A model generated the notes under the pieces. The model searched no databases, was not told the origin of the DNA, and saw only the letters and a program-made list of their open reading frames with translations. 64,000 nucleotides of DNA from a virus (Duplodnaviria; Caudoviricetes): IMG/VR virus record IMGVR_UViG_3300020577_008610, positions 96,001-160,000 of that record, one strand, 5' to 3'. This document shows, piece by piece, positions 25,359-63,023 of the stretch. A program made the translations under genes and the position numbers. Each line of letters begins with the position of its first letter. Position 1 is the first letter of the stretch.

Positions 25359-25775
25359 GGTGTGCACCCTATCCCTTTCAATTGAGTTGTGGTATACTTA
25401 GAAACGGAACTCCCGGTTGTGCCACAACCAAAAGACAAAGCCAAGGCTTTTGTCGCCTTGGCTACCGGGATAAGGTTCGTGAGTGACCGAGAGCAGGAAT
25501 ACTCACGTGAGGTACAGACGGACGCCAAGAGCAGAAAGTCCATGGCCGTGAGAGATGTTTGATGGTTTCTCATCTCTTTTCGGTTGGGGTTCCGGAACCC
25601 AAAGACCATCTCTCGCCCTGGGGGTAAAGGGTAGTCCAGATAAGTGAGCCCAAGCTTCCTGGAACTTGCAACTTGTGGTCTCGGTGTGGTTCAGAGGTTG
25701 CATGTGTGTTTCTTGATTGAAGGTTCTGGAATACCTCTTGAATCGCTTGGTTGGGATCCGTCAATTCCCAACACC

Positions 25776-45805: not shown

Positions 45806-46066
45806 ATGACAACCCTGATTACCGACAAGCTTAAGGCCCTCGGAGGCCGTTGGGACTCGGCCCGCAAGGGCTGGATGGTCCCGGACGAAAAGGCTACTGA
45901 AGCCCAGGAGCTGGTAAACTCGGCATTCGGACGTCTTCTGGGTTCTGTACACGGTGTGGAGACGATTGTGGTGGTACGGCCTACCACTGCAACTATGAGT
46001 AAGGTGTTTCCTACTCACAAAAGGTTCAGTCGGTGTGACACTTTGGCTTCGGAGATGCTCCCTTAG
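45806..46066 (+). CDS. Small hypothetical protein (KALGGRWD..W motif)
   Basis: TTGACG..TAAGAT promoter, AGGAG RBS. Confidence 0.65.
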   Translation: MTTLITDKLKALGGRWDSARKGWMVPDEKATEAQELVNSAFGRLLGSVHGVETIVVVRPTTATMSKVFPTHKRFSRCDTLASEMLP

Positions 46067-46129
46067 CTCAGTGGTTAGAGCAGCCGCCTTCAAATCGGTT
46101 GGTCGTGGGTTCAAATCCTACAGGGAGCG
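46057..46129 (+). tRNA. Opal suppressor tRNA (anticodon TCA)
   Basis: Acceptor GCTCCCT/AGGGAGC, D GCTC/GAGC, loop CT-TCA-AA (46090-46092), short variable loop, G73. Confidence 0.85.
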
Positions 46130-46133
46130 CAAG

Positions 46134-56997: not shown

Positions 56998-57046
56998 TGT
57001 TGCCTTAAACTCCACTGGAGTAAGTATTGTGCTCTTCAAGCGTTTG

Positions 57047-57089
57047 TGCTCCCGCCGAGACTCGAACTCGGATGTCCCATCCGGGACCA
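57047..57089 (-). pseudogene. 3' half of a tRNA-Leu-like gene
   Basis: Variable arm, T arm and CGGGAGC-A only. Confidence 0.55.
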
Positions 57090-57092
57090 AGG

Positions 57093-57183
57093 TGGTGCCG
57101 AATGGATTCGAACATTTGCTGTTACAACTCTCTATTCCAGGTCTTGCAAATAGAGCGTTCTATCCACCGTGGTACTCGGTCAC
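57093..57183 (-). tRNA. Degenerate tRNA-like gene with 16-nt anticodon loop
   Basis: CTCTA/TAGAG stem, GTTCGAATC, 3' CCA. Confidence 0.4.
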
Positions 57184-57384
57184 TTGCTGACGAAAATCAC
57201 AGATTTGAGCAGTCTTTTCTCGATGCTGTTCCTGAGCCTTGTTGGCCTTCAGGTACTTGCAGTGAGAACATTTCCGACTCGAACATCCGTGAAAAACCCT
57301 TCCAACCCACTCTGGTGGAATCTCCACGAGCTTGCCACGACGCATCCGGTAGAACTTTCCATCTTTCTCGATTCGCTTTGACAT
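57160..57384 (-). CDS. Small basic hypothetical protein
   Basis: RMRRGKLVEIPPEW; CSHC. Confidence 0.5.
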   Translation of the reverse strand: MSKRIEKDGKFYRMRRGKLVEIPPEWVGRVFHGCSSRKCSHCKYLKANKAQEQHREKTAQICDFRQQVTEYHGG

Positions 57385-57399
57385 TGGTCTTCCAACCTT

Positions 57400-57521
57400 T
57401 CGAGCTGGCGGGGATCGAACCCGCATCCTCAGTGTACTTTGGGCCTATAGGTTGCCCTCGGTTTTAGCCAGCATAGATGCCAGTCAAGACCAGGGGTGTA
57501 TTCCGGTTCCACCACAACCCT
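57400..57521 (-). ncRNA. tRNA-like RNA with hairpin insert in the anticodon loop and tmRNA-like 3' end
   Basis: Leu/Ser-type D arm; 26-nt loop; 3' GGATGCGGGTTCGATCCCCGCCAGCTC; G3-U70. Confidence 0.55.
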
Positions 57522-57537
57522 ACTGGGTTGGAAGTTG

Positions 57538-57634
57538 TTAGCCTGGAGGGATTCGAACCCTCATACTCGGCTTCTAAGCTTGCCTGTGGCGAAGCCATTG
57601 AAGACCGCTGCCTTTGCCATTAGCCTACAAGCTC
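57538..57634 (-). tRNA. tRNA-like gene with 25-nt insert (possible intron) in the anticodon loop
   Basis: Acceptor, D and T arms present; loop CTTCAA-TGGCTTCGCCACAGGCAAGC-TTAGAA. Confidence 0.6.
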
Positions 57635-57777
57635 TTGAGATGAAGTTTGCAAAAATTGCCCCCTTTCTCCTGTTGTTGCCTCAGCTCGTTGCCAACCTTC
57701 ATGGGGGGATTGAGCCCCCTAGCTCTCTGTATTGGGCGAAAAGGGTCTGGTGTTGACAACAAGGAAAAAGTGAGTCC

Positions 57778-58209
57778 TTATATTAACTTGGCTGCCCTGT
57801 AGTCCTTACGGCTCCAAGTCCTTGTACGATGACAGTTGGCACAAACCAACTCGCATTTGGCAACTTCCTCCCACATTCCTTGGCCGCTTCCGTTACGGAT
57901 GAAATTAGAGACGTTATCAGCCTTTTGTGCTCTGTCCACGTGATCAAAATCCATGATGAAATGCGGGAAGAAGTTGCCGCAATCCTTGCATGGATGCTTT
58001 TCTTTGTACTCCCTCAAGGCTTCGAGGGCCCTCTGCCTTGTTCTCTTTCGAGATTCAGAGTACTCCTTTTTGTGGCGTTGAAAGTGAGAAGCTGTGAGCT
58101 TCGCAATGCACGATTTGCACTGCCGTACCCGCCTCTTGTCTTTTTTGGAGGCCCAAGAAAACAGCTCTTCTTCCTTTTCTTCACCGCACTTGATGCAAGT
58201 TTTCAACAT
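57778..58209 (-). CDS. HNH endonuclease
   Basis: CKDCG..MDFDH..KCELVCANCHRTRT. Confidence 0.88.
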   Translation of the reverse strand: MLKTCIKCGEEKEEELFSWASKKDKRRVRQCKSCIAKLTASHFQRHKKEYSESRKRTRQRALEALREYKEKHPCKDCGNFFPHFIMDFDHVDRAQKADNVSNFIRNGSGQGMWEEVAKCELVCANCHRTRTWSRKDYRAAKLI

Positions 58210-58336
58210 GAAAAAGCGTAACTCCAAGGGGGTACATTGTCAAGCGATGGCGTTGAACTTTGATTGAATCCAGCTGATCGGACTCGAATCTTCATTCTAT
58301 TTCCCGATGATCGGATAGGATTCAATTAGCGCTTTG

Positions 58337-58555: not shown

Positions 58556-58594
58556 ATACAAATACAATCGTTCACTGATGAGTTATTTGTCAGG

Positions 58595-58666
58595 TAGGCG
58601 TAGATGGAATCGAACCATCGCTCTCTCGGTTATCAGCCAAGTGCTTTTCCATTAAGCTATACGCCT
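58595..58666 (-). tRNA. tRNA-Ile(GAT)
   Basis: Cloverleaf. Confidence 0.9.
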
Positions 58667-58796
58667 GTTATGCATGATTTGATGGAAATTTGAGCGCATC
58701 ACCATGCTAGTAAATGTAGTTTGATGTCGAGATTCTGCATCAAGCAATTGCTCTAACCACAGAGCGTAGCTTCCTGAGCTACAATCCAACAAAGTG

Positions 58797-59137
58797 TGTG
58801 CTTCTGCCCATGAATGCTGGTCCCGTTTAAGGGGTATTTAACCCCCTTTGGTTTTGTTCTGGCTCCTATCCGAGCCTAGGATGCTGTGGCATCCTTAGCA
58901 ACCGGATGGACGCTGTGTTGCTGGTCAGGCTCCACAGGAGCAATGAAATTGCTCACGATTTAATGGTTTGTTCAATTAAGCCAGGCTCCCTCAGCCTTCT
59001 GCTTTTTGCTACCAGGGAAAAGTTTTCACTCTTTTCCTCTGTCTGCCACCACAAGGTACTTTCACCTACAAATCGCTTCGTAAGGTTACTCCCACTAGGA
59101 GAGTCGAGGTCTCGCAACCCCGTAGGGCAGATGCACA
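58797..59137 (-). ncRNA. Unidentified ~340-nt structured ncRNA
   Basis: Terminal helix 58797-58809/59125-59137 (12 of 13 bp) enclosing many hairpins; no credible ORF. Confidence 0.6.
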
Positions 59138-59138
59138 G

Positions 59139-59210
59139 TTCGGGCGGGTGGATTCGAACCACCATAACAGGTTTCAGAGACCTGGGTCCTAACCGTTGGA
59201 CGACACCCGA
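59139..59210 (-). tRNA. tRNA-Gln(CTG)
   Basis: Cloverleaf. Confidence 0.9.
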
Positions 59211-59475: not shown

Positions 59476-59507
59476 TGAACTAGTGTAACCACCGTTTTAT
59501 CTTCTTG

Positions 59508-60191
59508 TCAACCTGCTTCTTCAATCTCTCTCAGAATCGCTTCAGCAGCCTTCTGAGGGTCTTGGGCATCCCGGATAGGTCGACCTACCACCAGGAGGTC
59601 TGCGCCGTCTCTAATGGCTTGCCGAGGGGTTCCTGTGGCCTTCTGATCGCTATTCTGCGAACCAGCGGGACGAATGCCTGGGATCAAGAAGAAATGACCG
59701 AGGTAGTTGAGTCTTCCTTCTGCGACTTCCTTGGGGGAGCACACGAACCCATGGGCTCCCTTGGCCATGTGCATCAGGTCTTGGACCACCACTTTCCGCT
59801 CGTGGTTGTAGACCTTGAGGCAGTCTGCATCATCCAGGGAAGTCATAGCCGTCACAGCCAGGATCATGGGACCACTTCGAGAGGCTTCAACAGCCGCTTG
59901 GATCATAGTTGAGCCGCCTGAAGCATGGATGGTCATGAAGTCAGCTCCAAGATTCATCCCTTGTTTCACAGCCCGAGAGACTGTTTCGGGAATGTCATGA
60001 AGCTTGAGGTCCAGGAAGCACTTGGCTCCCGATTCCTTCACCATCTCCACAACTTCAGGACCTTCAGAGATGAAGAGCTCCAAGCCAACCTTAAAAGTGC
60101 CGACATAGCCCCTGAGTTGACGAACAAAAGAGCGGGCTTCAATGATGTTGGGAACATCAAGAGCAAAACAGAGCCGGTCTTGAGCAGCCAT
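59508..60191 (-). CDS. pyrF: Orotidine-5'-phosphate decarboxylase
   Basis: ALD, FKVG, FLDLKLHDIPETV, PGIR, VVGRPI. Confidence 0.96.
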   Translation of the reverse strand: MAAQDRLCFALDVPNIIEARSFVRQLRGYVGTFKVGLELFISEGPEVVEMVKESGAKCFLDLKLHDIPETVSRAVKQGMNLGADFMTIHASGGSTMIQAAVEASRSGPMILAVTAMTSLDDADCLKVYNHERKVVVQDLMHMAKGAHGFVCSPKEVAEGRLNYLGHFFLIPGIRPAGSQNSDQKATGTPRQAIRDGADLLVVGRPIRDAQDPQKAAEAILREIEEAG

Positions 60192-62498: not shown

Positions 62499-62504
62499 AA
62501 ACTG

Positions 62505-62935
62505 ATTATTTCCGAGTCATTCCCGGCGCAGTACCACTTCCAAGGTTGCTTTCGCTTCACCTTAGAGGGCCTGTTTCCCACCCTTTGCGGAATGGTAAGC
62601 CGTCTTTACTCGCTGGTTATCACCCTACAGGGCTACGTGCTCCCTGCTCGGCAACCCATGAGCCACATTAGTAACCCCAATCCCAGGGCGTGGTTACCAG
62701 AAATTGACTTCTGGCTGGTGTCAAATACTCCCGATTTTCATCGTACGGACCAGGAGTGTTTGGCCACTCCCTGACATACAGGATCTCTGTCTAGGTCCTA
62801 GAGGTTATTTTACGTCGGATTAGCGACGTTCCGTTGCCCAGTTTGGGCAACCAGGCATGAACCTTTTAAGGTTCCGGAATTGAGGTTGGTTTCTCTTGAG
62901 TCTGTCAGCACCTCAAAACTGACAGAAAGAGACTA
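62505..62935 (-). ncRNA. Large structured ncRNA (~430 nt), possibly GOLLD-like
   Basis: 5' pseudoknotted hairpin, long-range ATTCCGG/CCGGGAAT helix, many hairpins. Confidence 0.6.
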
Positions 62936-62937
62936 GT

Positions 62938-63023
62938 TGTCAAAGAGCAAAGAGTCCTCGGACTCTTGGAGGGAGCAGCCCTCCGACGTTTTTAAACTTA
63001 GCATCGGTCTCTTTGGCCGTCAA
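62938..63023 (-). promoter_or_regulatory. Sigma70 promoter with rrn-type hairpin/boxA leader
   Basis: TTGACG(63023-63018)-N17-TAAGTT, two hairpins, TGCTCTTTGACA (62949-62938). Confidence 0.75.

Follow-up and report, generated by a model that had tools for sequence, protein, structure and literature searches.

The minus strand of a tRNA operon from a huge-phage clade carries, at positions 58797-59137 of the 64,000-nucleotide (nt) stretch analyzed here (the window; positions 96001-160000 of the 189-kb IMG/VR virus record IMGVR_UViG_3300020577_008610, Duplodnaviria; Caudoviricetes), what we take, with a probability of roughly three in four, to be the gene for a large structured noncoding RNA of an undescribed family. 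The 189-kb record is judged only 48% complete, which points to a huge phage as its source, and in the rightmost 12 kb of the window tRNA genes are arrayed on the minus strand, interspersed with a few small genes. The region under study occupies a 471-nt gap in this array between tRNA-Gln(CUG) (59139-59210) and an intact tRNA-Ile(GAU) (58593-58666, 71.8 bits), both on the minus strand and both called by ARAGORN and Rfam. An earlier, sequence-only reading had proposed a single discrete RNA spanning 58670-59137, starting 2 nt past the tRNA-Gln discriminator and closed by a long-range stem. The start and the stem stand: the discriminator at 59139 is followed by a single C (59138) and then by the RNA, whose first 13 positions (59137-59125) face its last 13 (58809-58797) in 12 pairs and one A/A mismatch. 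The span was too wide, as the RNA itself is the 341 nt of 58797-59137 and the remainder (58667-58790) is a decayed tRNA-Ile(GAU) plus a hairpin, so that two things had been merged.

Conservation, one of the checks to which the sequence-only reading had tied its proposal, was found in the form of homologs in four lineages, strong covariation and a tRNA-Gln(CUG) one base away. We reached relatives via two neighboring genes. One, for OMP decarboxylase, pointed to contigs whose encoded proteins are 92% and 63-65% identical, and the other, for a 125-amino-acid (aa) protein 3 kb away, pointed to further contigs; nhmmer then placed the element in four lineages at 53-88% identity. These are the clade of the window (loci L003-L007, L009, L010, L012, L100 and L101), L090-L092 (88% identical), L017 (~57%) and L093/L094 (~55%), with homologs located at L007:2180-2578, L100:6506-6904, L090:4937-5352, L017:2289-2713 and L093:7072-7449. 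The site is the same in all four, with tRNA-Gln(CUG) upstream and tRNA-Ile(GAU) downstream; the upstream junction is identical throughout (N73-C-UGUG), and the linker from the closing stem to the next tRNA or tRNA relic measures 5-9 nt in three lineages and 30 nt in L090.

The base pairing of the element is conserved to a degree that is unusually clean for so few sequences. We counted covariation on a 73-pair model over a seven-row alignment (A3), the model comprising the closing stem and the second long-range helix, the three hairpins at the 5′ side, one hairpin from the domain deleted in the window copy, helix X, hairpin Hd, pseudoknot K and a T-loop-like hairpin. Paired cells made up 93.4% of this model, compared with 38-49% when the 3′ partners were slid by 1-3 columns, and 27 of the 73 pairs showed changes on both sides with pairing kept, compared with 1-8 in the slid controls; none of 500 shuffles reached any of five pairing measures, and RNAalifold, run on its own, reported 37 compensatory pairs. 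The closing stem is almost fully rewritten among the window clade, L017 and L093 with its pairing kept, and the same holds for the second long-range helix. G-U cells outnumber A-C cells by 33 to 10, an excess which indicates that the RNA is read from the same strand as the tRNAs. The 471 nt also fold more stably than expected by composition, at -162 kcal/mol against -135 ± 6 for shuffled sequences (z -4.31, with 0 of 100 shuffles as good), and the full-length relatives give z values of -5.8 and -4.6.

Two long-range helices, one nested in the other, are predicted for the full-length RNA, along with about ten hairpins, a hairpin with a T-loop-like loop, a pseudoknot and several single-stranded blocks that are invariant. 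Its closing stem, P1, is formed by a 5′ strand at 59125-59137, in which 6 of 11 counted pairs have changed on both sides across lineages, and a 3′ strand at 58797-58809 that is supported by the minimum-energy fold and by covariation. Three 5′ hairpins follow (59122-59105, 59104-59088 and 59086-59064, together 59064-59122), with compensatory changes at nine pairs; lineage L093 lacks the second and third. Helix X would pair GUGGU at 59048-59052 with ACCAU at 58963-58967 and is offered as a proposal only, since all five of its pairs are invariant and covariation therefore neither supports nor contradicts it. Within helix X lies hairpin Hd (59013-59041, three compensatory pairs), as well as a segment at 58980-58992 that holds an invariant GAGGG (58992-58988), the 5′ strand of pseudoknot K (58984-58980) and then an invariant CUUAA. 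The 3′ strand of K (58859-58863) pairs back to 58984-58980 with two compensatory pairs, and K also appears in the minimum-energy fold of L007. Between helix X and this strand are three stem-loops with compensatory pairs (58954-58938, 58937-58913 and 58910-58864, together 58864-58954), which were recovered in the same order when each lineage was folded separately. A hairpin at 58829-58848, present in the minimum-energy fold and with two compensatory pairs, has a 7-nt loop with an invariant UUAAA, which we infer to be T-loop-like from its U-U-N-R-A pattern. Finally, the segment at 58812-58820 is the 3′ strand of the second long-range helix, which has nine pairs, three of them compensatory, in L007, L090, L017 and L093; on the 5′ side of this helix the window row of the alignment is gapped. 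The blocks that are invariant across the family are two UGGUGG boxes, GAGGG, CUUAA, ACCAU and the hairpin-loop UUAAA. Two local alternatives were rejected: a hairpin over the CUUAAU...AUUAA words is broken in L090 and L093 (the GUGGU/ACCAU alternative is intact in all lineages), and a stem at GAGGG meets an A/A in L017. Most of the hairpins listed by the sequence-only reading hold up, in that 59041-59013, 58954-58938, the tip of 58910-58864 and 58848-58829 are all in the minimum-energy fold and kept in relatives; the exception is GGCTC/GAGCC, which falls partly within the covarying K strand at 58863-58859 and is not conserved in L017.

That the element is a discrete RNA is supported by its conserved fold, with the qualification that the window holds a deletion allele of an RNA of about 400 nt. 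All other lineages carry 58 nt more than the window, positioned between two copies of an 11-nt direct repeat, and the scar in the window is the sole remaining copy of this repeat, at 59043-59053, which alignment places against two copies 58 nt apart in relatives; the family otherwise measures 378-425 nt. L100 is full length and 100% identical to the window across the shared 341 nt, and L101, which stems from another sequencing run, matches the window at 100% across 1001 nt, deletion included. The identity to L100 and the second assembly together show a genuine deletion that happened very recently. Lost with the 58 nt are a small three-way domain, one of the two UGGUGG boxes and the strand that pairs, as the 5′ side of the second long-range helix, with 58812-58820, which is left unpaired; lacking a domain and a helix strand, the window allele may be impaired. 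A stronger form of this argument holds that the family is real while the allele in the window is dead or crippled, at a locus that is decaying along with the neighboring tRNA-Ile pseudogene. We give this somewhat less than an even chance. It draws on the deletion itself, seen against all other lineages, on the orphaned strand at 58812-58820, on the decayed tRNA-Ile that adjoins the RNA and on the complete lack of the RNA from some relatives. Against it, the full-length allele matches the remaining 341 nt at 100%, which leaves no time for decay to have become visible, every other helix can still form, and the allele is present in two independent assemblies, so the phage that carries it is viable.

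Several results weigh against a conserved and dedicated RNA gene. Relatives from the same phage group (L013-L016, L095 and L096) lack the RNA at the syntenic site, and neither nhmmer nor a core covariance model detected a homolog in L013-L016, L095 or L096-L097; the syntenic absence, together with the circulating deletion allele, indicates that the RNA is dispensable at least under some conditions. The family also comprises only four lineages, with no other certain member in IMG/VR, JGI metagenomes, GTDB genomes or GenBank phages. Exact words taken from the invariant blocks were used to scan the first three of these collections, so that distant members may be missed: IMG/VR returned coding or chance matches, with one locus (L103) excepted, JGI metagenomes returned four matches, all by chance, and the GTDB scans returned zero matches and four chance matches. 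Searches of GenBank phages by blastn with three versions of the RNA gave no match, the protein route into IMG/VR via OMP decarboxylase found nothing, and the 189-kb record contains no paralog of the RNA. The excepted locus scores 27.8 bits against the core covariance model, near the 22.5 bits of a known chance match.

This locus, L103:2040-2540 (minus strand), is nevertheless a possible stand-alone relative. It is a 0.5-kb intergenic stretch in a 47-kb IMG/VR contig, flanked on one side by the gene for a sugar epimerase and on the other by a 132-aa gene whose family is unknown, and it resembles the RNA core in having an X strand, a hairpin, GAGGG, a K strand, CUUAAA and ACCAU, of which it may be a shorter copy. 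It lies behind a consensus promoter (TTGACA-17-TATAAT) and has no tRNAs within 14 kb. A true relationship is suggested by its agreement with L093 at 15 of the 22 positions that the search pattern left free, by a matching partner for the K strand, by the intergenic placement and by the promoter. If it is one, L103 would carry, in a viral contig that is otherwise unrelated, a pared-down version under its own promoter, and the core would be a more widespread module.

In the window, the RNA would be transcribed together with the tRNAs, as is suggested by the lack of a minus-strand terminator between them, for which we looked, and by a promoter-like site at 59511-59482. This site (59482-59511, minus strand; TTGACA, 18 nt, TACACT) comes directly after the stop codon of OMP decarboxylase and could drive a Gln-RNA-Ile-Leu-Leu unit. 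From the geometry of the locus, the 5′ end of the RNA would be produced by 3′ processing of tRNA-Gln(CUG), cut after the discriminator, and the 3′ end by RNase P cleavage at the following tRNA-Ile, after which the closing stem would seal and protect both ends. The same geometry could be read as that of a cis-acting scaffold, a structured spacer whose terminal stem organizes the cutting of the tRNA precursor, like the stems of rRNA operons, with no function once released. The terminal stem does join ends that adjoin two tRNAs, yet the invariant single-stranded blocks, the pseudoknot and some 14 conserved helices exceed the needs of a processing stem, relatives process the same tRNA pair with 12-90-nt spacers and no such RNA, and the possible homolog in L103 stands alone behind its own promoter. 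We therefore consider a scaffold unlikely. Most likely, the RNA instead works in trans as a compact fold, a mode of action favored by its large amount of conserved, tertiary-looking sequence, by the maturation of the same tRNAs in relatives that lack it and by the possible L103 homolog.

The assignment to an unknown class, and the failure of the sequence-only reading to see RNase P, transfer-messenger RNA (tmRNA) or group I core motifs, both agree with our searches. Rfam 15 was run on the whole window at the gathering score and, with small search windows and lax filters, at E up to 10 on four versions of the RNA (window, L007, L017 and L103), and no family matched any of the four, the only hits being tRNAs and noise. 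The sole tmRNA trace was a 7.7-bit fragment in L017 (E 0.7), and the Y-RNA-like family YrlA matched at only 15.9 bits (E 3.6), over tRNA-Leu(CAA) and so outside the RNA. ARAGORN called no tRNA or tmRNA within the RNA. On the same four versions, the covariance models of GOLLD (conserved 3′ half; gathering score or E up to 10) and ROOL (~580 nt, six multistem junctions, three pseudoknots) gave no match.

GOLLD and ROOL are phage-encoded RNAs of unknown function that often lie beside tRNA islands, fold into many helices with pseudoknots and have no adjoining partner protein gene (PMC12286853; PMC5737381). The RNA described here is like them in being a phage RNA next to tRNAs, with many helices, a pseudoknot and no partner protein gene, and its place inside a huge-phage tRNA array matches the phage or prophage location near tRNA islands that is typical of both. 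In contrast to GOLLD, which usually exceeds 800 nt, and to ROOL at ~580 nt, it is smaller (341 nt in the window, 378-425 nt in relatives), has another helix layout, matches them neither in sequence nor by model, has two tRNAs as its exact bounds and is found in four lineages only. We read it as a new family within a known kind, that of large structured phage RNAs associated with tRNA islands, and not as a member of GOLLD or ROOL. Another parallel lies in the T4 tRNA cluster, whose 'species 1' and 'species 2' (rnaC, rnaD) are stable non-tRNA RNAs with no known function that are co-transcribed with tRNAs and freed by tRNA-processing enzymes. Those are simple RNAs of ~120-140 nt, whereas this RNA is three times larger and pseudoknotted. 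It is also far larger than Y-RNA-like RNAs, and the 189-kb record has no Ro60/TROVE gene; RNA-ligase, RtcB and CCA-adding enzyme genes are likewise absent from this record, which covers 48% of the genome.

Could the RNA be a very divergent RNase P RNA, group I intron, tmRNA, GOLLD or ROOL beyond the reach of the Rfam models? Its size, its nested long-range helices with a pseudoknot, its T-loop-like hairpin and its tRNA context recall RNase P, and the order of the X and K strands resembles P3/P7 of group I introns. We nonetheless judge a divergent known class very improbable, as none of these families matched any of the four versions at E up to 10. RNase P RNA was rejected on its conserved regions, which are absent or out of order, and on the P4 strands, which do not occur in RNase P order: the GGCUUA-like word sits mid-molecule as part of pseudoknot K, and a P4 would need its conserved regions directly after P3 and directly ahead of the 3′ strands of P2 and P1. 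A group I intron is at odds with an intergenic position between two complete tRNAs, not within a gene, and with ends that pair in a 13-position stem; a group II intron was rejected as well. A tmRNA would require an acceptor/T-arm end and a tag frame, which are lacking, and a separate, standard tmRNA is encoded elsewhere in the same genome, outside the window (G000, 25395-25745). That the region codes for a small protein is hardly credible: gene-caller open reading frames of 62-87 aa overlap the RNA in L007, L009, L010 and L012, and the window has one of 70 aa (58953-59165, minus strand), but the latter begins within tRNA-Gln, each frame contains stops in one or more lineages, tblastx yields nothing beyond short blocks and these in every frame, indels are not multiples of three, and conservation tracks base pairs rather than codons.

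As to what the RNA might do, we lean, with low confidence, towards a function in tRNA or translation biology or towards an RNA-only assembly like those of GOLLD and ROOL. It shares with RNase P RNA and T-box leaders a T-loop-like hairpin, and UGGU within its two invariant UGGUGG boxes could pair with the ACCA 3′ end of tRNAs, a likeness to be set against the lack of a model match and of the defining conserved regions and helix order of those RNAs. One of the two boxes is paired internally, in the proposed helix X, with the invariant ACCAU. A bolder proposal, which we regard as tentative and rather doubtful, is that the RNA founds a class of its own among large, pseudoknotted phage RNAs, with a tRNA-aimed biochemical activity, or else that it assembles into a GOLLD/ROOL-like RNA-only particle. 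With a tRNA-aimed activity, the RNA would be made in step with the phage tRNAs, it would carry a T-loop and two UGGUGG boxes able to pair with tRNA ACCA ends, one box would be held by the internal ACCAU mimic, and the RNA might bind, shield, sense or process tRNA ends. Such engagement of tRNA ends by the conserved boxes would bear on the contest between phage tRNAs and the host nucleases that target them.

Large, intricately folded RNAs are rare in bacteria and phages, and several known classes turned out to be ribozymes, ribonucleoprotein scaffolds or RNA-only cages. The exact, tRNA-defined ends of the present RNA make it simple to express and purify, and it comes with a natural pair of alleles, full length and minus 58 nt, that are otherwise identical. 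It is one more indication that huge phages make stable RNAs in general from their tRNA operons, beyond the supply of tRNAs.

Downstream of the RNA, the 'more hairpins' that the sequence-only reading followed to 58670 are present and belong to two other features. The first is a degenerate copy of tRNA-Ile(GAU) (58713-58787, minus strand) that aligns to the intact tRNA-Ile 3′ of the RNA in L017, L093 and L090. It retains the acceptor 5′ strand, the D arm and the anticodon-loop word, has an insert of ~14 nt in the D loop, and has lost the anticodon stem 3′ strand and the T arm to decay; it does not form a complete cloverleaf, and neither ARAGORN nor Rfam called it as a tRNA. The alignment to the tRNA-Ile(GAU) of relatives, combined with these ruined parts, identifies it as a tRNA pseudogene. 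The second is a terminal hairpin (58672-58707, minus strand) that separates the pseudogene from the intact tRNA-Ile and occurs in the window clade alone. In sequence type, the intact tRNA-Ile (58593-58666) differs from the pseudogene and matches the tRNA-Ile that lies 3′ of the RNA in L090. On the upstream side, the tRNA-Gln(CUG) that precedes the RNA in L093 (L093:6988-7071) measures 84 nt and has a long extra arm, which is unusual for a glutamine tRNA, and a normal tRNA-Gln(CUG) lies 70 nt upstream of it.

Other noncoding elements were observed in these tRNA operons. A second 'ornate RNA' candidate in the operon of the window (62499-62940, minus strand) is 95% conserved in the close relatives L003-L005 and L100; similarity to the 58797-59137 RNA was not detectable, nor was there a more distant homolog among the loci examined. 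A different noncoding-looking element of 300-350 nt follows tRNA-Gln(UUG) at L096:2888-3240 and L095:3253-3551, two relatives without the 58797-59137 RNA. Conservation between these contigs is 90%, and the element matches nothing in Rfam and was not found in the genome of the window. Within the tRNA array, 3′ of two tRNA-Leu genes, lies an HNH homing-endonuclease gene (57778-58227, minus strand; PHROG HNH families, E 5e-28). Further along, the minus strand at 57000-57640 contains several tRNA-like genes with inserts, among them an Rfam tRNA call of 97 nt at 57538-57634 that scores only 33.6 bits, and the corresponding stretch in the close relatives L004 (7493-8054) and L007 (3339-3900) is called a permuted tmRNA by ARAGORN. 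Outside the array, a plus-strand tRNA at 46057-46130 with anticodon UCA is labeled selenocysteine (SeC) by ARAGORN and scores 66 bits as an ordinary tRNA, and it is a possible opal suppressor.
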